Source: Promethearchaeia archaeon (GTDB lineage: Archaea > Asgardarchaeota > Lokiarchaeia > Sigyniarchaeales > SOKP01). Taken from it: a stretch of DNA of 13,753 nt. The position numbers were made by a program, and so were the translations under genes. The stretch lies in assembly GCA_029856105.1 (NCBI GenBank), contig JAHQWH010000227.1:1-13753 (forward strand), written 5' to 3'. The notes beneath the pieces were generated by a model. The model was given only the letters and a program-made list of their open reading frames with translations, was not told the origin of the DNA and made no database searches. Positions within the stretch are counted from its first letter, which is position 1. Every line of letters starts with the position of its first letter. Below, piece by piece: positions 1 through 13,753 of the stretch.

Positions 1-1073
1 AGGCGTTTCGTTAAGATGCCATCAATAATTAGAAATTGTGTACCTTTAAAATCTTTAATTTTTTCAAAGAGTTCTCCTACCTTGATTTCAAATAGTTTCT
101 CTAAGCTTTTATTAAACCCTATACTGTGGCCTGGCTCTATTTTCTTAAAGCTTTCTTCTATTATTGAGTAATTTTTGACTTTTAATTTCTTCAATAATTT
201 TTGTAAATGCGATTCCTTTCTCATAGGTTCTTTTCTCTCGATAACCTTAGTCCCATGTGTGGCTCTTGCGGGCTTTTTATTTTGGAGAGATTTTATCATT
301 TGTTTACGAGTAAGTTCTTCTACTTCGTAACCTTCTGGTGCTCGCGCTACATAATCAAGTTTTGCAACTTGTAGAAGTTCATTTAAAATAATAGTTCCTC
401 CACGATCCCCGTCTAAGAAAGCTATGACATTTTCTTTTTTCTTAGTTAAACTAATAACCGACTTAGGAACTTGAGTACCTTGTACGGCAACTGTATTTTT
501 AACTCCTATCCTCAATAAATTTAATACATCTGCTCGACCTTCAACGATTATTAGTTCTGAACTAGAGTCAATGTTAGGACCCGCGGGTAAACCTTCTGGG
601 CCCCAAGAGATGATTTCTCCTAGTTTTATATCCTTATCGATTTGTTCTTCTATTTCGCTTGGTTCTAAAGATTTTTCATCCCATTCTTTTAATAGTTCAG
701 CTGCCCGTTCAATTATTTGCTTACGTTTAGCTTCTCTCACATCTCTTATTTCTAATAATTGAATTTCAGCTTCACAAGGTCCAACACGCGAAACAGTTTC
801 TACAGTTGCTGCTAATAGAGCAGTTTCTTTACGAGTAAGGCTAGAGGGGATTTTAATGATTCCTTCGGAAATTCCTTCCTTTGATTCATTTTCAACCTCA
901 ATCCGTCCTATGCGCCCTGACTTTTGAAGATCTCGCAAGTCGAGATCTAATAGAAGCCCTTCAGTTTGTCCAAAGATCGCTCCGACGATGTCTGATTTCT
1001 CAACAACGCCTTTAATCTTAAACTTCGTTTCGATAATATACTTTGTAGTAAAATCTACATTATTATTTGTAAT
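1..1073 (-). CDS. dnaG: Archaeal DnaG (TOPRIM primase-like, exosome-associated protein), 3' end outside window; probable ATT start
   Basis: Manual translation of the minus strand from 1073 gives ITNNNVDFTTKYIIETKFKIKGVVEKSDIVGAIFGQTEGLL...DLQKSGRIGRIEV...RVGPC...IIVEGRADVLNLL...FLDGDRGG...LIIDGILTKR, open to the window edge. These are the archaeal DnaG N-terminal signature and the TOPRIM motifs (EGxxD, DxD). The ORF track missed it because its stop lies outside the window. Confidence 0.95.
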   Translation of the reverse strand, partial: MTNNNVDFTTKYIIETKFKIKGVVEKSDIVGAIFGQTEGLLLDLDLRDLQKSGRIGRIEVENESKEGISEGIIKIPSSLTRKETALLAATVETVSRVGPCEAEIQLLEIRDVREAKRKQIIERAAELLKEWDEKSLEPSEIEEQIDKDIKLGEIISWGPEGLPAGPNIDSSSELIIVEGRADVLNLLRIGVKNTVAVQGTQVPKSVISLTKKKENVIAFLDGDRGGTIILNELLQVAKLDYVARAPEGYEVEELTRKQMIKSLQNKKPARATHGTKVIERKEPMRKESHLQKLLKKLKVKNYSIIEESFKKIEPGHSIGFNKSLEKLFEIKVGELFEKIKDFKGTQFLIIDGILTKR

Positions 1074-1591
1074 CTAAATCACTACCTTTTTTAATTTATT
1101 ATTTTATTATTTAATTTTATCAATCAATCTAAAATTGAATATAAACTTATAAAAAGAAGTAAAATCCAACTTATGGATAAGATCTAATGTTAAACTGATA
1201 ATTCCTAACTAAGATCTTGATTACTTTATCTTTTGAGATAGTTTTATTTATCTTTATTAAGCTTGAATTATGAATACTTCCTATAAATTGTTATAAGTTT
1301 GGATAATAATTTTGATTGATTTTTTTGATTTATTTAATTGATAATTTTTTTGAAAATTTTTATTATTATTATTATGAATGAAAAATTTGATTAGAAACTC
1401 TATAAATAATCAATATTTTTTGATGATTATTTAATTAAAGTAATTCTTTCAATTTATCTTTTATCAATTTAAAGGTTCAAATAAGGCTCCGCCCTTATTG
1501 TTATATTATCTCCATAAAATACTATTTTTTTAAGACTAATTTTGATTATACATCTATGAGTATTTATTGGAATAATAAATTATTAAAAAAA

Positions 1592-1735
1592 ATGTCAGAT
1601 AATACCAAAAGAAAGGTAAAGTACAAACTTAATACGGATATCGGGAGATTTTATTTCTATATCGAAAGAAATAAGGATTGTGAGACTCCAACTCTTACCG
1701 GGAAGTTAGTCTTTTTTCCTAAAAAAATCCAATAA
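1592..1735 (+). CDS. Small hypothetical protein, 47 aa (MSDNTKRKVKYKLNTDIGRFYFYIERNKDCETPTLTGKLVFFPKKIQ)
   Basis: ATG 1592 to TAA 1733-1735. Visibly higher GC and complexity than the extremely AT-rich flanks. Co-oriented with, and 99 nt upstream of, the ArsA-family gene. Below the ORF-track size cutoff. Confidence 0.55.
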   Translation: MSDNTKRKVKYKLNTDIGRFYFYIERNKDCETPTLTGKLVFFPKKIQ

Positions 1736-1834
1736 ACTAATGTAGAATTATTAAAATTCTTGAATTTATTTTACATATTATATCGTTATTTAATATTATT
1801 TAATTTCTTATTTTAAAAAATCTAAGCGTTTGAC

Positions 1835-2860
1835 ATGATTGAAAGAATAATAGTGTTAGGAGGTAAAGGAGGCGTAGGGAAAAGCTCTATAAGTGCAGCT
1901 ACTGCTGTACTTTTGTCAAAACTTCTTCCAAATAAGAAGATACTTCTCATTTCCTTTGATATGGCCCATAATTTATCAGATCTCTTATCTCAGCAAATTG
2001 GAAACATGATTACGCCAATAACAAGTAATCTATGGGCAATTGAACCTGATCCAAATATTTATGCTGAAAAATATACTAAAGATTTAGTTAATAAGATGAA
2101 AGCTCTTATGAAACAGATGCCTTTAGTGGGGATGATCCCAAAAATTGAAGAGTTTTTTGATACTACCTTTACTTCCGATTCAATTCCGTTGGCTTTAAAA
2201 AACGCTATATTTTTTCAAAAGATCTTAGATGCTGAGGATGTAACTTCTCAAGATATTCAATTTGATATCATTGTAGCTGATTTCCCTCCTACTGCTAACA
2301 TGATTACTCTCTTTGAAATTCCCCAAGACCAAGTAAAAGTCGTCTTAAAATACTCTTTAAATTTTTACAATTCAATAAAAGGAACAATTAGGAATTTTTC
2401 TAAAATGTTTCATCAAATTATTAAACCATTTGACGATCAAGAAAAGAGAAGGGAATTAGGTAAAGAAATATTCAATATGATAGTCGATCTTGAAAAGCGT
2501 GGCGAGAGAATTACTGAACTAATCCATAACGTAGGATCCTTAAGGTTAGTTTCAATAGCTGAAAAACCTAGCTTTGAAGAAGTTAAACGCGCAAGAGATT
2601 TAACGAAAAAATACATTAACCTTGATGCAGTCCACATTAATATGTTGACTCCTGATCCTAAACACTGTAATTTCTGTAAAAAAATGCGTCAAATACAATT
2701 AAAATTTTCTGGGGAAATTAAAAAAGAATTTAAAAATTTAAAAATTTGGGAGTCAGATAAGCTCCTTGAAGAACCACTTGGAATAGATGGTCTCAGAAAA
2801 CTGGCTTATGAAATCTATGGAGATATTACTGCTGAAGATATCCTAAACCCTAAAAGATAA
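1835..2860 (+). CDS. ArsA/Get3(TRC40)-family ATPase, single-domain, divergent switch motifs
   Basis: Deviant Walker A GGKGGVGKSS, switch I-like SFDMAHNLSD, switch II-like DFPPTAN, CxxC (CNFC) and an A-loop-like LEEPLGIDGL near the C-terminus. At 341 aa it has a single ATPase domain like Get3, not the duplicated ~580-aa ArsA. Confidence 0.9.
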   Translation: MIERIIVLGGKGGVGKSSISAATAVLLSKLLPNKKILLISFDMAHNLSDLLSQQIGNMITPITSNLWAIEPDPNIYAEKYTKDLVNKMKALMKQMPLVGMIPKIEEFFDTTFTSDSIPLALKNAIFFQKILDAEDVTSQDIQFDIIVADFPPTANMITLFEIPQDQVKVVLKYSLNFYNSIKGTIRNFSKMFHQIIKPFDDQEKRRELGKEIFNMIVDLEKRGERITELIHNVGSLRLVSIAEKPSFEEVKRARDLTKKYINLDAVHINMLTPDPKHCNFCKKMRQIQLKFSGEIKKEFKNLKIWESDKLLEEPLGIDGLRKLAYEIYGDITAEDILNPKR

Positions 2861-2912
2861 AATAAAAAAAAATTTATTAATTTGTATAGAGCTCTGAATA
2901 AAGCCCCATAGC

Positions 2913-3260
2913 TTATTTTTTAAATTTTTCATAATTAATATTAAAATTAGGAGTATGAATAAGAATTAAATTAGCAAAATTTTTATGAATGTTCTTATAG
3001 GAAAAATGTTGCCCTTTCTTAACAATACAAAAATCTCCTTTGGATAAATTAAATTCCTTTTCTTCCAAAATAAATTGAATTTCTCCATTGATAATGTAGT
3101 AATACTTATCGGAACGTGTAGACCAAGATTCTGAATGCTGGGAATTTGGAGGCATTTGGATCACAGCAAAAGAAGAACTCATTTCTAATCCTTCTGTAAA
3201 ATCATATATCTTTAATCCAGAGAAATCAATAGGTTTTAAAGAATCCTTTTTTATTATCAT
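2913..3260 (-). CDS. Cupin-domain protein
   Basis: 115 aa with cupin motif-1-like DKYYYIINGEIQF and motif-2-like LSKGDFCIVKKGQHFSYKN. Directly downstream of ahcY on the same strand. Confidence 0.85.
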   Translation of the reverse strand: MIIKKDSLKPIDFSGLKIYDFTEGLEMSSSFAVIQMPPNSQHSESWSTRSDKYYYIINGEIQFILEEKEFNLSKGDFCIVKKGQHFSYKNIHKNFANLILIHTPNFNINYEKFKK

Positions 3261-3317
3261 TACATAACCATTTTATTATAAAATATGAAAAATTGAAAAA
3301 ATTAAAAAGAAGAAGAA

Positions 3318-4586
3318 TTAGGTTCCTTCTTCGTAGCCGTGGATGTAGTTATACTGCTCCTCGGTTAATGTGTCGATCTCGATACCCATTGCTTGAAGTT
3401 TTAGGGTGCCCACTCTATCGTCAATATTCACTGGAACATCTACCATTCCTGGATTTAGTGAGTCTTTGTTTTTGACGATGTACTCAGACATTAGCGATTG
3501 TAGACCAAAAGACATGTCCATTACTTCAGCAGGATGCCCTTCAGAAAGCACTAAATTAGCTAATCTTCCTTTAGCAAGTAGGTATATCCTTTTGCCATCA
3601 GGAAATATTAATTCTTCTACATCTTGCCTTAGTGGTCTGATTTCCTTAGCATGTTCATACAATTCTTTAGTGGGAATCTCAATATCGAAATGGCCCAAAT
3701 TACCGAGAATAACACCCTCCTTCAGTTTATTGAACATTTCTTTTGATGGCGGAATTACATGCTTACAACCCGTTGCTGTAAGAATTATATCGGCAATGGG
3801 GAGAGTTTTTTCAATAGGCATAACATTATATCCCGCGAATTTGGCTTGTAAAGCTTTTATTGCATCAACTTCAGTAACAATTACATTAGCCCCTAATCCT
3901 CTAGCTCTTAATGCCATTCCTGAGCTGCAATGCCCGAACCCTGCAATCACAACATTTTTTCCTGCGAAGAGAACATGCATGCCATAGATCGCGGCTACAA
4001 TTCCTTGTCCTGTCCCTAATTCATTATCAAACTGGTTTTTACATCGCGCATCATTTACAGGGAAGAGTGGGACTCTCAATATTCCTTGTTTATCCATTGC
4101 TTTAAATCTCTTAACCCCAGTTGTAGTTTCTTCTTGACATGCGATTATCGTGCCATTTTCAATCAACTCTGGAAACTCCTTATGAGCAGTAACAATCATA
4201 TCCGCACCATCGTCAATTAAAATATTCGGTTTTGCCTTGAGACACTCTCGAATACACCAATAAAATTCTTCGTCTGTGTTGCCATGCCACGCAAAAACAT
4301 TTATTCCTTCTTGAACTAAGGCTGCAGCAACATCATCTTGAGTAGATAACGGATTACTTCCACATAAATAAACTTCAGCACCCCCTGCTTTCAAAGTACG
4401 GGCGAGATTTCCGGTTTCTTTAGTAATGTGTAAACATCCTGCAATTGTTATGCCTTTCAAGGGCTTCTCTTTGGAAAACCTCTTACGAATAATTTCGGCT
4501 GTAACAGGCATTTTAGATTCAGCTACATACAGAGCTTCTTTGCCTTTTTCAGCAAGGTTTTCATCAGCTACTTTATAATTAACCAT
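3318..4586 (-). CDS. ahcY: S-adenosyl-L-homocysteine hydrolase family (adenosylhomocysteinase or S-inosylhomocysteine hydrolase)
   Basis: Motifs CLHITKET, GSNPLSTQDDVAAAL, IDDGAD, QEETTTGV, GHFDIEI, GRLANL, EGHPAEVMDMSF and the archaeal-type C-terminus EEGT. ATG at 4586 is preferred over the GTG at 4598. Confidence 0.96.
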   Translation of the reverse strand: MVNYKVADENLAEKGKEALYVAESKMPVTAEIIRKRFSKEKPLKGITIAGCLHITKETGNLARTLKAGGAEVYLCGSNPLSTQDDVAAALVQEGINVFAWHGNTDEEFYWCIRECLKAKPNILIDDGADMIVTAHKEFPELIENGTIIACQEETTTGVKRFKAMDKQGILRVPLFPVNDARCKNQFDNELGTGQGIVAAIYGMHVLFAGKNVVIAGFGHCSSGMALRARGLGANVIVTEVDAIKALQAKFAGYNVMPIEKTLPIADIILTATGCKHVIPPSKEMFNKLKEGVILGNLGHFDIEIPTKELYEHAKEIRPLRQDVEELIFPDGKRIYLLAKGRLANLVLSEGHPAEVMDMSFGLQSLMSEYIVKNKDSLNPGMVDVPVNIDDRVGTLKLQAMGIEIDTLTEEQYNYIHGYEEGT

Positions 4587-4608
4587 ATTCAATTTCACTA
4601 TTCACAAA

Positions 4609-4627
4609 AATGATAAATTTTAACATT
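4609..4627. promoter_or_regulatory. Imperfect palindrome, candidate Lrp-family operator in the ahcY/lrp divergent region
   Basis: AATGATAAA-T-TTTAACATT (8 of 9 arm positions complementary, TG-N11-CA core with AT-rich centre), 23-41 nt upstream of the ahcY ATG. The AT-rich context lowers its significance. Confidence 0.3.
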
Positions 4628-4746
4628 ATACTAATCTAATAATTTTATGATATTATTTAAATATGATTGTCAAAAAGTGTAAACTAAATAATGCAATATT
4701 TATACAAACAATTATATTTTTAAATATCAATTACTTAAAAATTATT

Positions 4747-5706
4747 ATGGTAAGCAACAAAAATCATATAAAATCTTTTGAGATATTGAAAAAAGTCAAT
4801 ACAAAATCGAAACCTAATATTTCAAAAATTTCAAAAGAATTGGGGATTACTAGACAAACTTTTCAAAATAAATTTGAAATGTTAAAGGATAAAGGAACAA
4901 TTAAAAATTTCACTATTAACATCAACCCTAATATTCGACCCAATTTAAAATATGTGATTTTGGAAATAAAAACAAACCCTAAAGAGCCACACATCGTTGA
5001 AGATTTGTTAAAAATTCCTCAAATGAAAATGCTAGATGGAATTTTTGGAGAATACTCGCTCATCGCTCTGTTTGTGTTTAACGATTCTGATGAGTTTAAC
5101 AAAGTTCTCATTAAAGTAGATGAAATAATGGGAACATCTTATTTTAAGAAATATCAGATAATTGAAGCGATAAAAGTGTTCAAAACTTACGGAATAGATG
5201 TATCGACAACTGAATTGGAAAAAGATCTAAACCTTGACCAAATTGATTATAATGTTCTGAAAATAATGGAGAACGAACAAAATTTAAAATTAATTTCTAC
5301 TTACGAAATTTCCAAAATTTTCAAGAAAAGATATAATGTAGAGCTGTCACAATCTACTATTTACAATAGAATAAAAAAACTTGAAGAATCAAGCGCTATA
5401 CTTAATTATTCCATAAATTTTAAGCCAAAAGAGGTGGGATTTAAAGGGAAATTTATAGTAAGAATTAAACCTAAAGATTCTTCGAAATACAGTGAATTGG
5501 CACTAAGCTTAGTAAGGAAGGATGAAATTGTGTTTCTGTTCCGGATGGGCGAACAATACGGATTGTTAGCGATTGTTCGAGTAAAAAAAATCGAAGATTT
5601 TGGCGGTTTTATCAAAAATCTCTACGACTCAGAAGATATAGAGGATACTTATACTAATTTTGTGCTTGATGAGTTGAAATTGTACACAAACTTTAAAATA
5701 TTTTGA
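4747..5706 (+). CDS. Lrp/AsnC-family transcriptional regulator with two tandem HTH+RAM modules
   Basis: Module 1: ISKISKELGITRQTFQNKFEMLKDKGTIKNFTININP followed by RAM-like DGIFGEYSLIA. Module 2: LDQIDYNVLKIM...LSQSTIYNRIKKLEESSAILNYSINF followed by FRMGEQYGLLAIVRV. The ATG at 4747 is more plausible than 4663, whose extension is low-complexity AT-rich sequence. Confidence 0.9.
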   Translation: MVSNKNHIKSFEILKKVNTKSKPNISKISKELGITRQTFQNKFEMLKDKGTIKNFTININPNIRPNLKYVILEIKTNPKEPHIVEDLLKIPQMKMLDGIFGEYSLIALFVFNDSDEFNKVLIKVDEIMGTSYFKKYQIIEAIKVFKTYGIDVSTTELEKDLNLDQIDYNVLKIMENEQNLKLISTYEISKIFKKRYNVELSQSTIYNRIKKLEESSAILNYSINFKPKEVGFKGKFIVRIKPKDSSKYSELALSLVRKDEIVFLFRMGEQYGLLAIVRVKKIEDFGGFIKNLYDSEDIEDTYTNFVLDELKLYTNFKIF

Positions 5707-5792
5707 TTTTACTATAGTTTTTTGATTGAATTTTAAAAAAGTAGGAAAAAATTAATTTAAATACCTTTGAATGATATCTTTAATTGAAAAAC

Positions 5793-7874
5793 ATGAATTA
5801 TTTTTTTGAATTAATAGCTAAAGGAATAGGTTTTTCTAGAGTAGGAAGAATAATTTGCTCGAAGGAATCTAAAAGGTTTATATCGACACCTAATATCCTC
5901 GTTCCAATGAAGAAAAGTTTAATGAACCATATAAGTTTTCTTGAGGAATTTGAAGACCACGAGGTATTTTTGATCTTAAAAGAATTTTACTTGAAAATTG
6001 GATTTTTACGAGAAAAATTTAAGCATACCGGCTTTATTTATAAGCACAATGGTTCAATGGAAAAATTTAAAGAAATTTTAGCTAATAATATTGATATTTT
6101 TTCAGAGGATAACATTATACCTTTAATTCCCTTTAATATTCCTACAACAACCATAAATAAGGAATTCGCTAAAAACGAAATTATCAATTTTATAACCAAC
6201 GCTAATCAAATCTTAAATCAATATCGGAATTTAGATTTTGGTTTATCTATTAAGATTTTTGAGCATCCCGAATTATTTGATCTGTATCTTCCTTTAATTA
6301 AGGACAACAGTAACGTTAGAATAATAAATTTAGTCGATCTATTTGATGTATTTAGTAAATATAGAAATATTTTAAAAGTAATTTTTCAAATTAAGCAGGA
6401 GCTTGACAACAATTTAGTCTTAATGGCTTCCGGTAGAATTATTCCGAAATTATATCCAATTTTAGTCTATTTAGGAGTAGATTTAATCGATTGTTCCTAC
6501 CTATTATATTTATCTTCTGAAAATTTCTACGATACTATAGAACATCTACTTCCCATTTATAAATTGAAATATTTACCCTGTCCGTGTTCTATTTGCAAAA
6601 GGAAATTAAAACATATCCTAGAAAACAAATACTCTTCCGAAAAAATAGAACAATTAACTCTTCATAATATTATATCTGCATATACATACATGAATAAAAT
6701 AAAGTTGTATTTGCGCACGGAGGATTTTCGAGGTTTTGTAGAAAAAACCTCATTTGACGACATGAACATAATATCGATGTTAAAAGTCTTAGATAAGCAG
6801 TACTTTAACGCGATGAAACTTGAAACTCCGATAACTCAAGCGAACAAAATCATTAATTGTTTTGGTCCATCTTCATATTATAGACCAGATTTCCAAGAAT
6901 TTCGGGAGAAATTATTGAAAAATTTTACGCCGGAATCATGGACAAAATTAATTATCATACTTCCTTGCTCGGCAAAGAAACCTTACTCCGACTCGAAATC
7001 TCATAAAAAATTTCATAGCATCATACGTAAATTTCGCGATTTTCCTGATTTTCAAGAAATAATTTTAACTTCTCCCTTAGGAACCATTCCTAGACAACTT
7101 GAAAATATATACCCCGTAAATTCATATGACATCTCGGTAACTGGGGATTGGGATAATGAAGAGATAACAATTGCATCAAATATGTTAATTAAACTATTAG
7201 AGAAATATGATAAGGACATACCTATTATATGTTATTTAAAAGAACTTGGATACATAAAAATTATCGATAACGCTCGATTAAAACTAAAGAATAAATTCTA
7301 CTTCACGGAAGTTAAAAGCAGTCTAACTACCATTGAATCCCTAAAATCTTTAGAAAACAGTATTAGGGACCTAAAAGATTCGTTTAAACCCTTAGAACCT
7401 ATTCCAAAAAATAAAAATTTCTCAAAGAGTTGGACTCGTAAATTTAATAAAATATTGGATTATCAATTTGGAACTGGTTCTGGAGAAAAAATATGTTCTA
7501 ACGGAATTAGGACTAGAAAAAATGATAGAAGGCACCAAATAGAAATTTTTGACTTAGTAAGTAATGAGAATCTTGGAAAACTCAATTTTAATACAGGACA
7601 AATAGAATTAAATCTTTCAGGAGCTAATAAACTATTACCTTTAAGTGAAAATACGAATTTTATAGTTTTTGATGGTCAAGTAATTAAGGGGAACACCTTA
7701 TTTCGTCCTGGGATAGTAAGTTATAGTCCAAATCTCGTTCCAAAAGATTTTACGCTTATTTTCGATAAAGATAAAAAGAATTTAATTGGATTAGGGAACT
7801 TAGAAGTTGGTTCAAATTATATAAAGAATTCAAAAACAGGTAAAATTGCAAATGTCTACGAAAAAATTAAATGA
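5793..7874 (+). CDS. arcS: Archaeosine synthase subunit alpha (ArcS/TgtA2; TGT-like barrel, DUF5591-type domain, PUA)
   Basis: TGT-like N-terminus (SRVGRI...STPNIL, LGVDLID, Zn site CPCSIC...HN), ArcS signature LPCSAKKPYSDSKSHKKF and ILTSPLGTIPRQLE..YP..SYDISVTGDW, then DYQFGTG and a C-terminal PUA-like GNTLFRPGI. Start is ATG 5793 or TTG 5784. Confidence 0.88.
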   Translation: MNYFFELIAKGIGFSRVGRIICSKESKRFISTPNILVPMKKSLMNHISFLEEFEDHEVFLILKEFYLKIGFLREKFKHTGFIYKHNGSMEKFKEILANNIDIFSEDNIIPLIPFNIPTTTINKEFAKNEIINFITNANQILNQYRNLDFGLSIKIFEHPELFDLYLPLIKDNSNVRIINLVDLFDVFSKYRNILKVIFQIKQELDNNLVLMASGRIIPKLYPILVYLGVDLIDCSYLLYLSSENFYDTIEHLLPIYKLKYLPCPCSICKRKLKHILENKYSSEKIEQLTLHNIISAYTYMNKIKLYLRTEDFRGFVEKTSFDDMNIISMLKVLDKQYFNAMKLETPITQANKIINCFGPSSYYRPDFQEFREKLLKNFTPESWTKLIIILPCSAKKPYSDSKSHKKFHSIIRKFRDFPDFQEIILTSPLGTIPRQLENIYPVNSYDISVTGDWDNEEITIASNMLIKLLEKYDKDIPIICYLKELGYIKIIDNARLKLKNKFYFTEVKSSLTTIESLKSLENSIRDLKDSFKPLEPIPKNKNFSKSWTRKFNKILDYQFGTGSGEKICSNGIRTRKNDRRHQIEIFDLVSNENLGKLNFNTGQIELNLSGANKLLPLSENTNFIVFDGQVIKGNTLFRPGIVSYSPNLVPKDFTLIFDKDKKNLIGLGNLEVGSNYIKNSKTGKIANVYEKIK

Positions 7875-8955
7875 AAATAATTTCCTCATTGAAAAAATCA
7901 AAGTTCTTAGATCTAAAACTATTAGAAAAAAGTCAAAATTTGAAGACGAACGATTAGATAAACCAGTAAGTTTTTGGATAAAAGAAGATCGTTTGCTCAA
8001 GGAAAAAGGAAAGGAGTTCACGATTATATTAAGAACAAAGGGATGTAGTTGGGCATTAGGAGAAACTGGAGGGTGTTCAATGTGTGGATATATTCAAGAT
8101 TCTACCATTGTCGAAATTGACCCTAATCATATTATCAACCAATTTGATTATGCCTTACAAAAAAAAATCAAGGAAATTTCTATCGACAAAGATGATTTCA
8201 TCCTCAAGATTTTTAATTCTGGAAGCTTTTTCGATGACGACGAAATATCTGCAGATGTTCGTGAACATATATATAAAAAAATCGCTGAAATCCCTAAAAT
8301 AAAAGAAATTGTTGTAGAATCTCGAGTTGATTATATAACTCGTGAGAAGCTTAAAAAAATGAAAGGCATATTAGAAAATAAGTACATCGAAGTAGCAATA
8401 GGTTTGGAAACGGTAAATGATTACATTAGAAATATTTACGTAAATAAAGGCCTAAAATTCGAAGATTTTTTAAAGGCAGTCCAAATTTGTAAGGAAAATA
8501 ATATAGGTGTGAGAGTGTATTTATTGTTTAAACCACCCTTCCTAAATGAACAAACAGCAATAGATGATTGTGCTAGTTCTATTCAAAAATTAGCTGAATT
8601 AAAGGTTAATACTATTTCAATCAACCCTCTCAACATTCAAAAAAATTCACTAGTGGAATATTTATGGTATCAGAACCGATATCGGCCCCCTTGGTTTTAT
8701 TCTTTATTTAAATGTATAATTAAAGCTTGCAAAGACAATTCTATCTTGGATTCAGTTAGGATTATATCATCGCCCTCTGGAGCTGGCTCGAAAAGAGGAA
8801 TTCACAATTGTTTAAAAAGAGATTGCAACGAATTTATGATAAACTCTCTCAAAGAATTTGTAATTTCTCAAAATATCAATTGTTTAGTAAAAAAAGACGA
8901 TAGCTACTCGTGTGGGTGCCTAATAAAATATCAGTTGCAGAAAAATTTCATTTAA
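7852..8955 (+). CDS. raSEA: Archaeosine biosynthesis radical SAM enzyme RaSEA
   Basis: ILRTKGCSWALGETGGCSMCGY (CX9CX2C), KIFNSGSFFDDDE, VESR, AIGLET, YLLFKPPFLNE, YRPPW, GSKRGIHNC and a terminal CGC match the TIGR01210-type family. Overlaps the arcS stop. Start is ATG 7852 or TTG 7846. Confidence 0.92.
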   Translation: MSTKKLNENNFLIEKIKVLRSKTIRKKSKFEDERLDKPVSFWIKEDRLLKEKGKEFTIILRTKGCSWALGETGGCSMCGYIQDSTIVEIDPNHIINQFDYALQKKIKEISIDKDDFILKIFNSGSFFDDDEISADVREHIYKKIAEIPKIKEIVVESRVDYITREKLKKMKGILENKYIEVAIGLETVNDYIRNIYVNKGLKFEDFLKAVQICKENNIGVRVYLLFKPPFLNEQTAIDDCASSIQKLAELKVNTISINPLNIQKNSLVEYLWYQNRYRPPWFYSLFKCIIKACKDNSILDSVRIISSPSGAGSKRGIHNCLKRDCNEFMINSLKEFVISQNINCLVKKDDSYSCGCLIKYQLQKNFI

Positions 8956-9161
8956 TAAATACAATTAAGATGACAATTAAAATAAATTCTTGAACTCACT
9001 TTTAAAAGTAATCAAAAACGGACAGAATTTTTGTATTTTTGTCGAAAATCAATAATTTATTTATCTATCCCACCCATTTCCCGTTTATTAAGATTTTTAA
9101 AATAACGTACATTTGGAATAAATTAATCATTTTTGTAAGCCCTTTTTAAATAAAGGGTATA

Positions 9162-9169
9162 TTTATATA
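9162..9169 (+). promoter_or_regulatory. Candidate TATA box for gar1-tfb
   Basis: TTTATATA about 50 nt upstream of the gar1 TTG, preceded by purine-rich AAAGGG. Confidence 0.35.
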
Positions 9170-9220
9170 TTATTTAACAATTTTCTATTCTATATTTTAA
9201 ATAATAGTTAGGGTCGTCGT

Positions 9221-9469
9221 TTGCAAAAATATATTAAGCTAAATCTATCCTATCTCGGGAAGTCTAAGAAACATCAGATCTTTAGAGCTAAAAGGTGGGA
9301 CAAAAACCTTGAAAATATTTTTCATAAATCTGTTTTTACGGAAAAATACGAAGAAATTGGTTATATTAAAGAAATTTTTGGTCCTATAAATTTGCCATTT
9401 ATTTCTATAAATACATTACCTAACAAAAAATTTAATCCAAATGATACTCTCTATGCTAAATTACATTAG
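9221..9469 (+). CDS. gar1: H/ACA RNP subunit Gar1/Naf1-family protein
   Basis: 82 aa with EEIGYIKEIFGPINLPFISI, matching the Gar1 motif G-x-V/I-x-D/E-V/I-F-G-P-V-x-x-P-Y. Its position directly upstream of tfb is a gene order known from many archaea. Confidence 0.85.
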   Translation: MQKYIKLNLSYLGKSKKHQIFRAKRWDKNLENIFHKSVFTEKYEEIGYIKEIFGPINLPFISINTLPNKKFNPNDTLYAKLH

Positions 9470-9518
9470 TATTTTATATTTATTTTAAGAAAAAGAAATA
9501 TCAAAAAAGGTGTAAATT

Positions 9519-10481
9519 ATTTCAAGTTGGAACCAAAGCAACGCATTTGAAGAAAATAATTTGAATATAAGTGATGTTAGTTGTAGTGAATGCGGTAAAA
9601 ATATTCTATTTGACGAAAATAGAGGTTTATTGGTTTGTCAAGAATGTGGTTTAGTACACTCAGAAAAGCATATAGATCAGGGTCCTGAATGGCGTGCTTT
9701 TGATGCAGATCAAAAAAAAAAAAGAACTAGGACAGGAGCGCCTATGACATATATGATCCACGACAAGGGCTTAAGCACAATGATAGACTGGAAAAATAAG
9801 GATATCTTTGGCAAAGAGATTTCTGCTAAGATTAGAGGCCAAATATATCGCTTGAGAAAGTGGCAAAGTAGGATTAGAGTATCAGATGCAACTGAAAGAA
9901 ACTTGACTTTTGCCTTAAGTGAGTTAGATCGCATGGCTTCAAACCTTGATCTTCAGAAAAATCTTCGAGAATGTTCTGCAAAAATCTATAGAGACGCTGT
10001 TGGAGCTCATCTTATTCGAGGAAGAAGCATTGAAGGCGTTGCTGCTGCAAGTCTATATGCCGCTTGTAGAAGGTATAAAGTACCACGCACATTAAACGAG
10101 ATAGCAGAAGTTGCTCGTGTTGATAAAAAAGAAATAGGACGATCCTTCAGATTTATCTCAAGAGAATTAGAACTAAATTTAAACCCAACTAAACCATTAG
10201 ATTTTCTTACTCGGTTTATATCTGAATTAGAACTATCTACAGATTGTCAAAAAATGGCAAAGAAAATTATTAAAAAAGCTGAATTAATGGGACTAACCTC
10301 TGGGCGTGGACCAACGGGATTATGTGCCGCAGCAATTTATACCGCATCAATTCTCACTAAAGAACGGAGAACTCAAAGAAAAATAGCCAAAGTTAGTCAA
10401 GTCACAGAGGTGACCGTTCGAAATCGCTTCTCCGAACTTATAGAAAATTTAGATCTTGGAATTAGTTTAAAGAAAAAGTAA
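9519..10481 (+). CDS. tfb: Transcription initiation factor IIB (TFB)
   Basis: Zn ribbon CSEC...CQEC, B-reader [15 protein letters not shown], two cyclin repeats (LIRGRSIEG; TSGRGPTG) and C-terminal [22 protein letters not shown]. The start is uncertain: ATT 9519 (6 nt after SD-like AAGGTG) or TTG 9561. Confidence 0.97.
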
Positions 10482-10595
10482 TTTTTCATTTTGTACAAAC
10501 TCTCTTTTTTGTAATACCTTCATAATATATTGATTTAAGACATTTTTTTTCCAATTTTATTCTATCGATTATAAGATTTTGATAGGTCAGGTATA

Positions 10596-10952
10596 ATGAA
10601 ACAAGAGAATACTAGATTAATAAATCAAATTGAAGTAAACTATTTCTTACACAGGATTAAGAAAAATTTCCCCAATTTTGTAGCAGGCGTAATAACCGAT
10701 AAAAATGGATTCGCAATAGGCTCGGATATCTCAAAAAGACTTTGGATTCACGAGAATAAACTAGCTTTATGGGCAATATCCAAAAATAAGGAGAATAAGG
10801 ATATCTTAAACGATCCAAATTTAGTTCAACTCAAGTTTGATATCGATAAAGGGAAGAGATTTAAACTATTTATTTTGTTAGAAAAATCGAAAAATAATAA
10901 AAACAGAGTAAAACCCTTAAAAACTTTGATTAGCTCGCAAGAGTTATTTTAA
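10596..10952 (+). CDS. Hypothetical protein with roadblock/profilin-like N-terminal half
   Basis: Helix followed by NFVAGVITDKNGFAIGS, the h-h-h-x-D-x-x-G-h-x-I pattern of roadblock/longin-like folds. SD-like AGGT lies upstream of the ATG. Confidence 0.6.
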   Translation: MKQENTRLINQIEVNYFLHRIKKNFPNFVAGVITDKNGFAIGSDISKRLWIHENKLALWAISKNKENKDILNDPNLVQLKFDIDKGKRFKLFILLEKSKNNKNRVKPLKTLISSQELF

Positions 10953-11129
10953 TCCGTTGCGCAACATAAAACTATTTAGAGTGAATTAAATTTTTATAGA
11001 TAGAATTTTATTTTTATACTATATATACTTAAAAAGGATAATTAGAGTTTACTTTAAATAAATTCTTTTTAATAAAAAAGCACATTGGATAATATCTAAA
11101 TCGCTTAAAAAAATAAATGGTAGGTCCAA

Positions 11130-11603
11130 TTGAGTTATTCTCAGGACGAAAATACATTAAAAAAAATATTAAACGAAATTATTAATAGTACGCCAGGTTT
11201 AAAATACGCTATAATCATAGACGATACTGGAATAACTATTGTGAGCGAGTCTAAATTCATTCTAAAGGCTTCCAAAGACGATATCTCCGTTGAAAAAATT
11301 GGAGCAATTGGAGGTGCTGTGTTCACCGCTGGCGAAGAACAAGGATACATCCTCGGTTATGGAAACATTCACCTACAAATCACTGAATATTTTAAAGGGA
11401 TGATTTTTTCTATAAAAGCAGGTAAAGGAGTGTTATGCGTTGCTTCAGATAAAAATATTCAAATAGGGCTTGTAAGAGCGATAATGAACAAGTACTCGCC
11501 AAAGATTGCGGTAATTTTAAACCAATACATTCAAACAGAGGAAGGAGAAATCAATAAAGAGTTGAAAGAACTCTTTAATGCGGACACGGTTAGTCTTTTA
11601 TGA
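11130..11603 (+). CDS. Roadblock/LC7 (MglB/LAMTOR-like) domain protein with C-terminal helical extension
   Basis: LKKILNEIINSTPGLKYAIIIDDTGITIVS...VEKIGAIGGAVF...LQITEYFKGMIFSIKAGKGVLCVASDKNIQIGLVRAIM follows the canonical roadblock pattern. SD-like GGTAGGT lies upstream of the TTG. Confidence 0.9.
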   Translation: MSYSQDENTLKKILNEIINSTPGLKYAIIIDDTGITIVSESKFILKASKDDISVEKIGAIGGAVFTAGEEQGYILGYGNIHLQITEYFKGMIFSIKAGKGVLCVASDKNIQIGLVRAIMNKYSPKIAVILNQYIQTEEGEINKELKELFNADTVSLL

Positions 11604-11610
11604 TGAATAC

Positions 11611-11624
11611 TCTTTTCTCTTTTT
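11611..11624 (+). terminator. Pyrimidine/T-rich archaeal-type terminator for the roadblock gene
   Basis: TCTTTTCTCTTTTT begins 8 nt after the TGA stop. Confidence 0.4.
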
Positions 11625-11646
11625 GAAGTAAGTACAAATTCTTTTT

Positions 11647-11958
11647 AAAATCAGCATATATTGTAGCCTAGTGCACTAACACATAATTTATCATTTAATG
11701 GTTATTCCATAAAATCAAATAAGTTCTCTCGTGCTAGGCGATAATTTCTATGCCTTTTTGGGGCATAATCATATCTGCACGCTGGGTACTGACTCGAATC
11801 TCATCGCACGGAATTACCTTAGCTTGATTAAGAGCCCATTTTTGATGCAGTAAATTGTTGATTAATAAACTCAGGATGTACGCATAAGTTTGCACACGTA
11901 ATCACGGGTTATCATACGTGTCCTCGAATATGCCAATGTTCCATCATCATTTTCCCAT
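11647..11958 (-). ncRNA. Multi-hairpin box H/ACA guide RNA (or cluster) flanked by box C and box D motifs
   Basis: Minus strand, 5' to 3': box C AUGAUGA (11950-11944); hairpin 1 (11933-11882) with K-loop, then ACA (11879-11877) and CUGA (11874-11871); hairpin 2 CUGCAU/GUGCAG (11850-11775), then AUAUGA; small hairpin UAUGCC/GGCAUA (11767-11749); hairpin 3 GCCUAG/CUAGGC (11739-11666), then ACA (11664-11662); terminal CUGA (11654-11651). GC is elevated relative to the flanks and there is no credible ORF. Confidence 0.75.
11877..11933 (-). ncRNA. H/ACA hairpin predicted to guide LSU rRNA pseudouridylation at E. coli-equivalent U2496
   Basis: Lower stem GCAUA/UAUGC. Pocket 5'-UUCGAGG and 5'-GCAAACU. 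Upper stem ACACGUA/UACGUGU capped by the K-loop AUGA-UAACCC-GUGAUUA. ACA lies exactly 14 nt from the upper stem. The pocket is complementary to RGUUUGC-U-N-CCUCGA. Confidence 0.85.
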
Positions 11959-11978
11959 GTAATAATAAAAAAGCTGAG

Positions 11979-11986
11979 TTAAAAAA
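11979..11986 (-). promoter_or_regulatory. Candidate TATA box for the guide RNA
   Basis: The minus strand reads GAATAAA-TTTTTTAA about 25 nt upstream of the AUGGGAAAAUGAUGA 5' end, which is archaeal BRE/TATA spacing. Confidence 0.35.
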
Positions 11987-12077
11987 TTTATTCTATTTAA
12001 GTGGGAAATTTAATTTACTCTTAACTAATTTTTTATATTTTCATTAAGTTCGTTATTAATTTATAATATCATGTAAA

Positions 12078-12094
12078 ATCACTAATTTAGTGAT
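12078..12094. repeat. Perfect 8-bp inverted repeat, 1-nt spacer
   Basis: ATCACTAA-T-TTAGTGAT. Confidence 0.6.
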
Positions 12095-12188
12095 AAAAAT
12101 TGACAAAATATGATGACTGCTAATAAAAAAGAAAGAAATAAAAAAAAAAAAATTATTTATTTATTAAAATTTTGTTATTTGGGTTTGT

Positions 12189-13753
12189 TTACTGCTCGTA
12201 TAATGCTGGAATATCCCACCATACGGGATAGAAGTAAGTTCTGCCCATTGCGTTTGATGGAAAATCCATTAAGTCTTTGAGCCATGCATCATTATCTATA
12301 CCGACGTATCCATATGCCCAAGGCATATCTTGTTCTACTAGAAGTGTTTGAATCCTATCGTAATAGACTTCTCTTTTATGATCGTCCGTTTCTAATAATG
12401 CTTCTTCCATTAAGAGCTGTACGTTGTCCATTAGGTCAAAAGCGTCCCTACCAGCTTCAATTGCGGATAAATATCCATTATATTTAGCACCATTAGATGC
12501 AACAGATCTGTTGGTAAATAATGGATTAATATAGTTGCTAGGATCATTATAATCGGGAATCCATCCGATCCAGAACATTTGGTTTAAATCTCTGTGGAGA
12601 CCAGCGAGTTCGTACAAACTTAAGATGAATTGTTCAAACGTGGTACCAGCGTCTTCTACTTCTATTCCAATATAATCAAGATTATCCACCAAAAGAACAT
12701 ACATATTTTCCCGCATATCATTACCAATGTTATAAGTATAGTTAAACGTAGCAAAAGTTGCGGCTTTCCATTCAGCATCAGTTGTGAATCCAACACCATA
12801 TCCCATACTTTGCATAGTAGCTTGGGCTGCAGCACGATTAAAGAGTGTTACATCATTTGTCCAGTTAGCATATGCTATACCTTCTGGGATAGGTGATTTT
12901 AACCTGACTGCTTGTCCTTCTTTTAGCTCTTCAATTATAAAAGAATAATTTATTGCCTGAGAAATTGCTTTCCTAAAGGTTGTGTTAATCCAAACGCTAT
13001 TCATTCCAAGATATTGAACTCCAAGATCTTGTCCAGCTTCAAAGAGCGTAATATCTGGATCCGAGTCAAATGTAGATAACATAGAACCCATAGGATCAGT
13101 TATGATATCAACATCACCGGATAATAAAGCATTATTTCTGATTTGAGGGTCGGTGATAATAGAGAAGATTAATGTATCAATCTTAGGTCGTAATCTCCAG
13201 TAAAAATCGTTTGCGTGGAATAATATTTCAACGCCGGCTTCATAACCGTCATAAACAAACGGTCCGGTACCAACCAAGTCTCCATTTGCAGTGTCGATTG
13301 GTTCATCGAGAGGAGTGGAAGCTGGTGAAAGCATATATGCCGCATTAAAGGATAAGATAGCTTCGAAGGCACTATATATCGTATTTAAAGTGAATTTTAT
13401 TGTATAATCATCCACGACTTCCGTTTTATTAATAATATTGTGAAATACTGGCGCTGTTTCTCCTGTAGTAATGTTAACAACATCTGTTCTAACGTAAAAT
13501 TGATAAAGCTCTCCAGCTTTAGCTAATTGATTGGCCATTAAACCAGCTAATCTGTCGAAATTCCATTTAGCGGCAACAGCATCAAATTTGGTACCATCAT
13601 GGAACCATACATCATCTCTTAACTCAACGGTATATGTAGGTAGTACTCCAGTAAAGTTCCAATCACCTTTAGCTTTTGCGAGTATTGGTAAAATTTCTAA
13701 GTCAGGATCGGTTAAATTGTACATAAATAATGCTTCACAAACTTGATCATGTA
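12189..13753 (-). CDS. ABC transporter substrate-binding protein, family 5 (DppA/OppA/NikA-like), 5' end outside window
   Basis: LRDDVWFHDGTKFDAVAAKWNFDR, VVDDYTIKFTL, VGTGPF, FRKAISQAIN and WIPDYNDP. The frame stays open upstream of the track's M (HDQVCEALF-MYNL, resembling the family's 'xYEgL' motif), so the true start is beyond 13753. Confidence 0.93.
   Translation of the reverse strand, partial: HDQVCEALFMYNLTDPDLEILPILAKAKGDWNFTGVLPTYTVELRDDVWFHDGTKFDAVAAKWNFDRLAGLMANQLAKAGELYQFYVRTDVVNITTGETAPVFHNIINKTEVVDDYTIKFTLNTIYSAFEAILSFNAAYMLSPASTPLDEPIDTANGDLVGTGPFVYDGYEAGVEILFHANDFYWRLRPKIDTLIFSIITDPQIRNNALLSGDVDIITDPMGSMLSTFDSDPDITLFEAGQDLGVQYLGMNSVWINTTFRKAISQAINYSFIIEELKEGQAVRLKSPIPEGIAYANWTNDVTLFNRAAAQATMQSMGYGVGFTTDAEWKAATFATFNYTYNIGNDMRENMYVLLVDNLDYIGIEVEDAGTTFEQFILSLYELAGLHRDLNQMFWIGWIPDYNDPSNYINPLFTNRSVASNGAKYNGYLSAIEAGRDAFDLMDNVQLLMEEALLETDDHKREVYYDRIQTLLVEQDMPWAYGYVGIDNDAWLKDLMDFPSNAMGRTYFYPVWWDIPALYEQ

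Follow-up and report, generated by a model that had tools for sequence, protein, structure and literature searches.

We analysed a stretch of 13,753 nucleotides (nt) from a Promethearchaeia archaeon (assembly GCA_029856105.1, contig JAHQWH010000227.1, positions 1 to 13,753; hereafter the window, which is one entire contig of a 3.66-Mb assembly with 92% completeness) and focused on an RNA locus in its minus strand, at 11647..11956. The locus probably encodes one box H/ACA guide RNA with three modules, the first of which is closed by a kink-turn and the other two by helices. Because a helix beyond each ANA box shuts in the hairpin together with this box, the RNA can be described as three closed modules. 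An earlier note on the same DNA, made from the letters alone (the sequence-only reading), had proposed another arrangement, in which the H/ACA hairpins are nested in a C/D-box frame that spans the whole RNA.

As judged by its conservation, the minus-strand RNA of about 300-310 nt is a real gene: in a DNA search of relatives, 29 other genomes of the genus proved to have a full-length homologue with 70-97% identity, a TATA-like element and a GGG are conserved at its 5ʹ side, and its helices covary. In the family-wide alignment the three-module RNA was alignable throughout in 13 genera, with the order and spacing of the modules kept. The sequence motifs alone were not significant: shuffles led us to expect 4.0 occurrences of RTGATGA in the window, where three were counted, and the tetramer CUGA is common. 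Folding of the single sequence was uninformative (z = -0.11).

RNAalifold, applied to the 29 genus sequences, returned three hairpins and two long-range helices. The full structure, drawn by hand, comprises 67 pairs, which are 95.0% paired in the genus alignment; its covariation reached 0.221, in comparison to 0.091 for shuffles and at most 0.052 for slid controls, and 21 pairs were changed on both sides. Every hairpin consists of a lower stem, a pocket whose strands are invariant, and an upper stem topped by tandem G.A signatures. The ANA box of an archaeal H/ACA hairpin is expected 14-16 nt 3ʹ of the pocket top, and all three hairpins fall within this range: the distance is 15 nt in hairpin 1 and 15-16 nt in hairpin 3, and the 17 nt counted in hairpin 2 include a 2-nt bulge of variable length, which makes them effectively 15 nt. 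About 10 pairs above the pocket, a kink-turn (K-turn) or kink-loop (K-loop) could be read from the sequence in the hairpins. The upper stem of hairpin 1 has seven Watson-Crick pairs, a U.U and then G.A/A.G, 10 in total; in hairpin 2, GAUGA faces (A/U)A with 10 positions to the pair C137-G184 if U.C is counted; and the upper stem of hairpin 3 carries UGAU/AUGA. These upper-stem non-canonical pairs are of a kind that covariation cannot assess. The lower and upper stems of the hairpins do covary, as expected for archaeal box H/ACA hairpins.

In module 1, hairpin 1 (11882..11933, minus strand, as for all features below) contains the covarying helices P1 (GCAUA/UAUGC) and P2 (ACACGUA/UACGUGU), the pocket strands UUCGAGG and GCAAACU and the K-loop UGAU...GUGAU, and it is followed by an ACA box at 11877..11879, which is invariant in the genus and has the form ANA in the phylum set. 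The hairpin and its ACA are enclosed by a box C at 11947-11941 (AUGAUGG) and the first CUGA (11874-11871), which, on comparative evidence, form a kink-turn of the C/D type. Its stem I is made by AAAU (11949..11952) and GUUU (11867..11870), which pairs with it and covaries at the level of genus, family and phylum. The stem is followed by the 3-nt bulge GAU (11948-11946), by the core with the sheared pairs G11945.A11871 and A11944.G11872, by a U.U, and by stem II, in which GGA (11942-11940) faces UCC; the UCC strand overlaps the functional box D, CUGA at 11874-11871, and together they occupy 11871..11876. The combination of a box C/D kink-turn with a terminal stem was found for the first CUGA and not for the terminal one.

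Two overlapping box C registers are present at 11941-11950 (AUGAUGAUGG), and the downstream one alone is conserved. This register, at 11941..11947, is kept in the genus and in the phylum: AUGAnGG with the following A was found in 28/29 genus homologues. The upstream register, AUGAUGA at 11944..11950, overlaps it and starts 3 nt before it; it is intact in only 17/29, and it was this register that misled the sequence-only reading. Within the genus, the innermost pair of stem I is UA in 18 sequences, UG in 8 and CG in 3, and GGA/UCC of stem II is invariant, with compensatory AGA/UCU and other pairs elsewhere. Among the phylum representatives (n=29), the GA of box C is present in 28/29 and the GA of box D in 27-29/29, and the 3b.3n position is variable. 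A covariance model of module 1 matched 119/131 genomes of the family, from 13 genera, and outside the order it found matches in the families f26 (6/7), f17 (10/14), f21, f18, f8 and f29. The same model gave one further match in the archaeon's own genome (contig C19:195673-195713, L038; 22.4 bits, E 0.68), which is probably noise.

Modules 2 and 3 are closed by ordinary helices. The 5ʹ strand of closing helix 2, UAAUCA at 11859..11864, was predicted by RNAalifold and is 100% paired in the genus; its 3ʹ strand, UGAUUA, lies with the ANA box of module 2 at 11766..11774. This box is AUA here and ACA in most relatives. Compensatory variants of the helix were found as UAAUU/AAUUA in g24, UUUUC/GAAAA in f2g10 and UAAUCC/GGAUUA in f26. 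The C'-like AUGAUUA noted by the sequence-only reading is made up of this ANA box and the strand of the Watson-Crick closing helix 2. The enclosed hairpin 2 (11775..11850) has a strongly covarying P1 (CUGCAU/GUGCAG, 5/6 pairs changed on both sides), the invariant pocket strands AAAUGGGC and CAG(UA)CCCA, and an upper-stem kink-turn in which GAUGA (11805-11801) faces AA (11825-11824).

Hairpin 3 (11666..11739) has the P1 GCCUAGCAC/GUG(CA)CUAGGC and the pocket strands GAGAGAA and UGUUA; its upper stem shows GA/GA kink-turn signatures, and the pair at columns 260-298 is UA in 15 sequences and AU in 14. It is followed by an ACA box (11662..11664) that is invariant in the genus and by UAUGC (11654..11658), the 3ʹ strand of closing helix 3, which pairs with GCAUA at 11753-11749. 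Within the genus, 99% of this helix is paired and a single compensatory change occurs (U-A to A-U, in L014); in addition, G-C replaces A-U in L077 and the helix reads GCAUGGGA/UCCCAUGC in f2g10. In f8, f17, f18, f26 and f29 the same position is held by helices unrelated in sequence, namely GGAUC/GAUCC, GGGUCGUG/CACGACCC, GGGAACCGA/UCGGUUCCC, GCGCGUCA/UGACGCGC and AAGCGCCGG/CCGGCGCUU. L027-L030 and the genus g21 have lost the 3ʹ tail together with its partner strand. The 5ʹ strand of closing helix 3 is also the 3ʹ strand of a mini-hairpin, UAUGCC-CCAAAAA-GGCAUA at 11749..11767. We rejected the mini-hairpin as a functional helix: it shows no covariation and is dispensable, and the change in L014 leaves closing helix 3 intact and breaks the mini-hairpin. 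At the 3ʹ end, 11647..11654 is taken up by the terminal CUGA (11654-11651), which shares its C with closing helix 3, and by the U tract (11650-11647), probably the terminator. In f17 (L117, L119-L121, L126) the tail after hairpin 3 has CUGCAGAGCA ahead of the closing helix, and a plain ACA is absent at the usual place; this tail may provide a second kink-turn strand of the CAGAGC type.

Several points weigh against the three-module reading. The family and phylum alignments of the kink-turn were fitted to the model, and the counts they give (GC14/AU11 for pair 9-130 and GC18/AU7/GU3 for pair 18-125 in the phylum set, and changes on both sides of all four stem I pairs in both alignments) are therefore biased towards it. 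Despite this, the margins over both controls are large, with an overall covariation of the kink-turn stems of 0.748 in comparison to 0.240 for shuffles in the phylum set and a result of like kind in the family set, and compensatory changes appeared also in a plain MAFFT alignment: AGA/UCU with UUGA in g24 and g29, and the stem I variants ACUC/GUGU in g20, AGAC/GUCU in g27 and CAAC/GUUG in g18. The G.A pairs of the kink-turn are beyond the reach of covariation. The sister family f2 was matched by the module 1 model in only 1/14 genomes, the first box D of two genus members (L008, L014) is CUAA rather than CUGA, and a distant homologue of hairpin 1 (L125, from f19) is without the kink-turn motif altogether. 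The Rfam model of HgcG (RF00064), a three-motif RNA discussed below, gave no match to this RNA even at E up to 10. The duplexes with rRNA (ribosomal RNA) that we propose below for hairpins 2 and 3 either are short or depart from the canonical form, and their score alone is near chance. Finally, the transcript ends, the status as a single transcript and the protein binding are all deduced from the sequence. As for the deviating homologues, L008 and L014 have ACGAUGA at box C and keep the terminal CUGA, and the kink-turn there may either accommodate an A.A pair or have a different partner; L125 comes from an AT-rich genome and has the same pocket (AUCGAGGAC ... GUGCAA), with no recognisable modules 2 and 3 downstream.

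In the arrangement favoured by the sequence-only reading, the 5ʹ AUGAUGA (11950-11944) and the terminal CUGA would form a C/D core that frames all three hairpins, like that of U85, with D' and C' motifs inside. All of the listed motifs are indeed present in this genome, in the order described: AUGAUGA at 11950-11944 is preceded by GGGAAA, the ACA at 11879-11877 is followed by CUGA 11874-11871 starting 2 nt later, AUGAUUA (11772-11766) comes after hairpin 2, and the ACA at 11664-11662 precedes CUGA 11654-11651 and UUUU 11650-11647. Moreover, in the genus and among family representatives from several genera, the terminal CUGA is commoner than the 1-in-16 chance of GA after AUGCU, and so it may be an ancestral state. 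We nevertheless regard such an outer frame as scarcely credible. The terminal CUGA is present in only 17/29 genus homologues (4 of the 12 that lack it are without the whole tail) and in 9/21 family representatives, 12 having lost it, and it is absent in other families too. The hairpins persist in genus and family, an outcome that the sequence-only reading itself had named as speaking against its frame. The upstream box C register, intact in the 17/29 given above, shows no association with the terminal CUGA (2x2 counts of 11/6/6/6), and the conserved register pairs, with covariation, with the first CUGA.

The terminal stem suggested for this frame, gaaa/uuuu, was 77.6% paired, in comparison to 77.7% for shuffles and 78.0% when slid by +1, and no compensatory change was found; nor is the 3ʹ tail free to serve as its strand, as it pairs instead upstream of hairpin 3, in closing helix 3. 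Since the terminal CUGA is lost while the hairpins are kept, the stem does not covary and the tail is engaged elsewhere, the outer frame is unsupported, and the terminal CUGA is, on this comparative evidence, not a functional box D. Other parts of the sequence-only reading fared better. The RNA does combine H/ACA hairpins with what appears to be a genuine C/D-type kink-turn, with conserved GA dinucleotides and covarying stems, and the fallback proposal of a self-contained C-[H/ACA]-D unit at about 11954-11867 agrees with both conservation and covariation. The first CUGA, taken there as a D' box, is present but serves as the functional box D of the 5ʹ box C. When the conservation of the C and D boxes was checked as had been suggested, it held for box C, in a register shifted by 3 nt, and for the first CUGA, and failed for the terminal CUGA.

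Methylation guidance had also been suggested for the C/D boxes, and the duplexes upstream of either CUGA were no better than those of shuffles. For the rRNA complementarity upstream of the first CUGA, 114/200 shuffles were as good, and upstream of the terminal CUGA 145/200 were; in general, rRNA matches of putative guides upstream of each CUGA or CAGA were at chance level. The positions upstream of the first CUGA are occupied by the covarying lower stem and the ACA, and those upstream of the terminal CUGA by the strand of closing helix 3. No C'/D' pair was found in the RNA: AUGAUUA is a helix strand, and a partner D' motif is lacking. The box D and linker sequence CUGAGUUUAUUA (11863-11874) can pair with positions 2174-2185 of the archaeon's own large-subunit (LSU) rRNA (UGGUAAGUUCAG, about Escherichia coli 1948-1959) over 12 base pairs (bp), 4 of them G.U; we rejected this candidate, which is at chance level and not conserved, with only 9 bp in relatives that have CUGAAUUUAA. 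By all these comparisons the kink-turn carries no methylation guide.

The genome encodes Cbf5 (428 bits), L7Ae (82.5 bits) and fibrillarin, and either guide machinery could thus be available. This bears on the possibility that box C and the first CUGA make up a true C/D ribonucleoprotein (RNP) core, which would recruit Nop5-fibrillarin after L7Ae and give a composite particle; such a core may direct methylation without a canonical guide or have a role in processing or circularisation. The layout is of the C/D type: the terminal stem I leads into a 3-nt bulge whose last base is U, GA/GA comes next, followed by 3b.3n, which is frequently U.U, and by a G-C pair. The fibrillarin gene is at hand, and human U85 is a large composite RNA whose processing and stability are aided by its C/D core (PMC4041459). 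We still consider a composite particle unlikely: the C'/D' partner motif is lacking, the 12 nt upstream of box D covary as lower stem and ACA rather than being conserved as a guide would be, their best rRNA match is at the chance level given above, and the 3b.3n pair varies between U.U, A.A, C-G and U.G. There is an equally small chance that Nop5-fibrillarin and Cbf5 sit on one RNP that would be an archaeal forerunner of the eukaryotic composite scaRNAs (small RNAs specific to the Cajal body), with the closed modules as a distinct assembly principle.

It was further suggested that the locus may give rise to two or three separately processed RNAs (the C-[hairpin 1]-D unit and hairpins 2 and 3), in which case the closing helices would mark the units. 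Every module is self-contained and closed, and two forms of Pab21 accumulate in vivo in Pyrococcus, one that includes the linked C/D part and one that lacks it (PMC2377435). On the other hand, the sole conserved promoter-like element sits upstream of module 1, and the modules abut, with spacers of 2 nt or zero: closing helix 2 begins at 11864, stem I having ended at 11867. As the three modules, moreover, keep their order and spacing across 13 genera, separate processing is distinctly improbable, and a single three-module RNA is preferred.

In such an RNA, the extra helix just past the ANA box would close each module, consisting of a hairpin and its ANA box, and the closing helices would keep every ANA box in an internal loop, giving three compact units per transcript. 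The binding sites of L7Ae would be the three apical K-turns or K-loops and, in addition, the basal kink-turn. Together, the basal kink-turn and L7Ae would staple the 5ʹ end to the hinge past the first ACA, fixing the angle between modules 1 and 2, and would probably also protect or stabilise the RNA. Cbf5-Nop10-Gar1 would then use the three pockets to pseudouridylate 23S rRNA.

To find the targets of the pockets, we used the archaeon's own LSU rRNA and the small-subunit (SSU) rRNA of its closest relative as references. For the pocket of hairpin 1, U2713 of the LSU rRNA (UUGC-UU-CCUCGA) was the top site in 29/29 homologues, with a mean score of 10.2 and a minimum of 9. The pairing is clearly bipartite and leaves the UN of the target free, as expected of an archaeal H/ACA guide. 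After alignment of the flanking landmarks, subtraction of the offset of 217 places it at E. coli 2496, which presumably corresponds to yeast Psi2865. An offset of +92 to Pyrococcus abyssi was derived from Pab35, which covers the RluE, RluB and RluC sites (PMC2377435), and from E. coli 2496 and this offset it follows that U2713 is Psi2588 of P. abyssi, an experimentally verified target of Pab40 motif 1 (PMC2377435). The equivalent of E. coli 2496 is thus a well-supported predicted target of hairpin 1.

For hairpins 2 and 3 the odds of the predicted targets are roughly even. Hairpin 2 can pair with the A loop through a 7-bp duplex (GCCCAUU/AAUGGGC) and through CAG(bulge)CCC with GGG(G)CUG, leaving U2801, the equivalent of E. 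coli 2554 and the candidate site, unpaired. The match needs a guide bulge and three unpaired target nucleotides, and the sole indel-variable columns of the guide coincide exactly with this bulge. In L082 (g28), the 3ʹ pocket strand of hairpin 2 has CAGC in place of CAG(UA)CCC, with four contiguous pairs to the GCUG of the A loop; since the bulge is not needed there, this lends mild independent support to the A-loop target. Hairpin 3 can pair with helix 69, where UAAC-UAUAA-CUCUC is matched by GUUA and GAGAG in 4+5 bp, with five unpaired target nucleotides; the candidate sites are the equivalents of E. coli 1915/1917. This pairing resembles the unpaired UVUN geometry described for helix 69 guides such as Haloferax sR-h45 (PMC7075261). 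Two further LSU rRNAs from the family keep the target sequences of all three hairpins.

Other targets were tried and rejected. Both invariant strands of hairpin 2 (11783-11841) are complementary to adjoining 16S segments, GGGAGCCC and UGGGUACUGA. This match to SSU 305-327 (in the relative G005, L032), with 10 perfectly matched nt to UGGGUACUGA and 8 bp more, was judged coincidental, because the order of the strands is reversed, the target nucleotide is G and indels at columns 189-191 break it. With the equivalents of E. coli 2585/2586, the 5ʹ half of hairpin 2 pairs well (GCUGGGU/ACCCAGC), the 3ʹ half needs a bulge and reaches no more than 3-5 bp, and of ACCCAG only ACCC is conserved; LSU U2177, U2534 and U1013 are incompatible with the stems. 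The top score of hairpin 3 (mean 11.1) belonged to LSU U2620/U2622, which we rejected because the guide is invariant and yet the two further LSU rRNAs from the family do not keep the target region. Of its further candidates, U423 gave a half-site match only, U1007 (UAGC-UG-GUUCUC) is a weaker alternative disfavoured by the variants GAGAGACC (g28) and GAGAGAC (f2g10), and a genome-wide regular-expression search was unspecific (122 hits).

The LSU rRNA itself (C34:45014-48345; L031 1501-4832) is 3332 nt long, in comparison to 2987 positions of the Rfam model. Its offset to E. coli jumps from 217 at 2496 to 247 at 2552, which implies that some 30 nt are inserted past the peptidyl-transferase loop and ahead of the A loop (GGGAGCGCAUAUAAUCGUUUCGGUUUCGGAGCGGUGCGCAU).

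The closest relative in function is probably the three-motif RNA known as Pab40, Pf7, Pho40 or Afu4 (HgcG, RF00064) in Thermococcales and Archaeoglobus (PMC2377435), of which the RNA described here would be the counterpart in this phylum. Both have three H/ACA motifs on one RNA. The target of Pab40 motif 1 is shared (P. abyssi 2588, E. coli 2496, own U2713), helix 69, the best reading for our hairpin 3, is also the target of Pab40 motif 3, and the site originally proposed by Tang et al. for Afu4 motif 2 (P. abyssi 2647, about E. coli 2555; PMC2377435) adjoins the A-loop site of hairpin 2. In comparison to Pab40, our RNA appears to add the basal kink-turn and the closing helices.

H/ACA and C/D motifs also occur together in the archaeal transcript Pab21 (Pf1), with snoR9 (RF00065), of Pyrococcus (PMC2377435, PMC4652768). 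There, the H/ACA hairpin lies in tandem, 5ʹ of a complete and separate C/D guide, and both forms accumulate, whereas here the C/D core encloses the hairpin and comes without a guide, C'/D' motifs or a separate C/D body. Likewise, scaRNAs of the U85 type have a C/D core flanking an H/ACA structure in one RNA, and the core supports processing and stability (PMC4041459), a role that by analogy the kink-turn may have here. In U85, however, the C/D termini enclose the whole two-hairpin H/ACA domain, and the C/D domain also guides methylation; in our RNA the core surrounds one of three hairpins and no guide is detectable. Thus neither of the features of U85-type RNAs, a C/D core around the entire H/ACA domain and guide function of both domains, was found. 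According to a 2021 review, scaRNAs are not present in archaea (PMC7991803). With the canonical archaeal C/D small RNA our RNA shares the kink-turn of box C (RUGAnGR) and box D (CUGA) and the terminal stem, the presumed L7Ae site, but it has no C'/D', 12-nt spacers or antisense elements, and an H/ACA hairpin of about 65 nt stands between the boxes. We found no description of this architecture in the literature on Asgard H/ACA RNAs or composite archaeal RNAs.

The RNA gene lies in an intergenic gap of 585 nt between convergent open reading frames. Both the genus and the family alignment show a conserved TATA-like element, AAATTTTTTAA (11979..11989), and its centre lies about 28 nt upstream of a GGG that is likewise conserved. 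From the usual archaeal spacing we infer that the element is the promoter and that GGG is the transcription start; the RNA would then begin at GGG 11956, and its 3ʹ end would fall between 11654 and 11647, in the U tract. No transfer RNA was found in the region, and cmscan of 11550-12250 gave no Rfam family at the gathering threshold and, at E up to 10, noise only (twister-P1, sR46).

In the usual picture, an archaeal H/ACA RNA consists of bare hairpins with an ACA box, and C/D-H/ACA composites are regarded as peculiar to eukaryotes. In this case, a predicted C/D-type kink-turn around the first of three H/ACA modules is kept across many families of one archaeal phylum. This provides a testable case of L7Ae-type kink-turns organising a multi-module guide RNP, and it could reveal whether both small nucleolar RNP machineries share one RNA outside eukaryotes. 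The RNA is missed by Rfam models, whereas the covariance model of module 1 detects it in most of the family's genomes and in several further families. The pseudouridines predicted from its pockets would lie at three functional centres of the LSU rRNA of these uncultured archaea, namely the peptidyl-transferase region, the A loop and helix 69.

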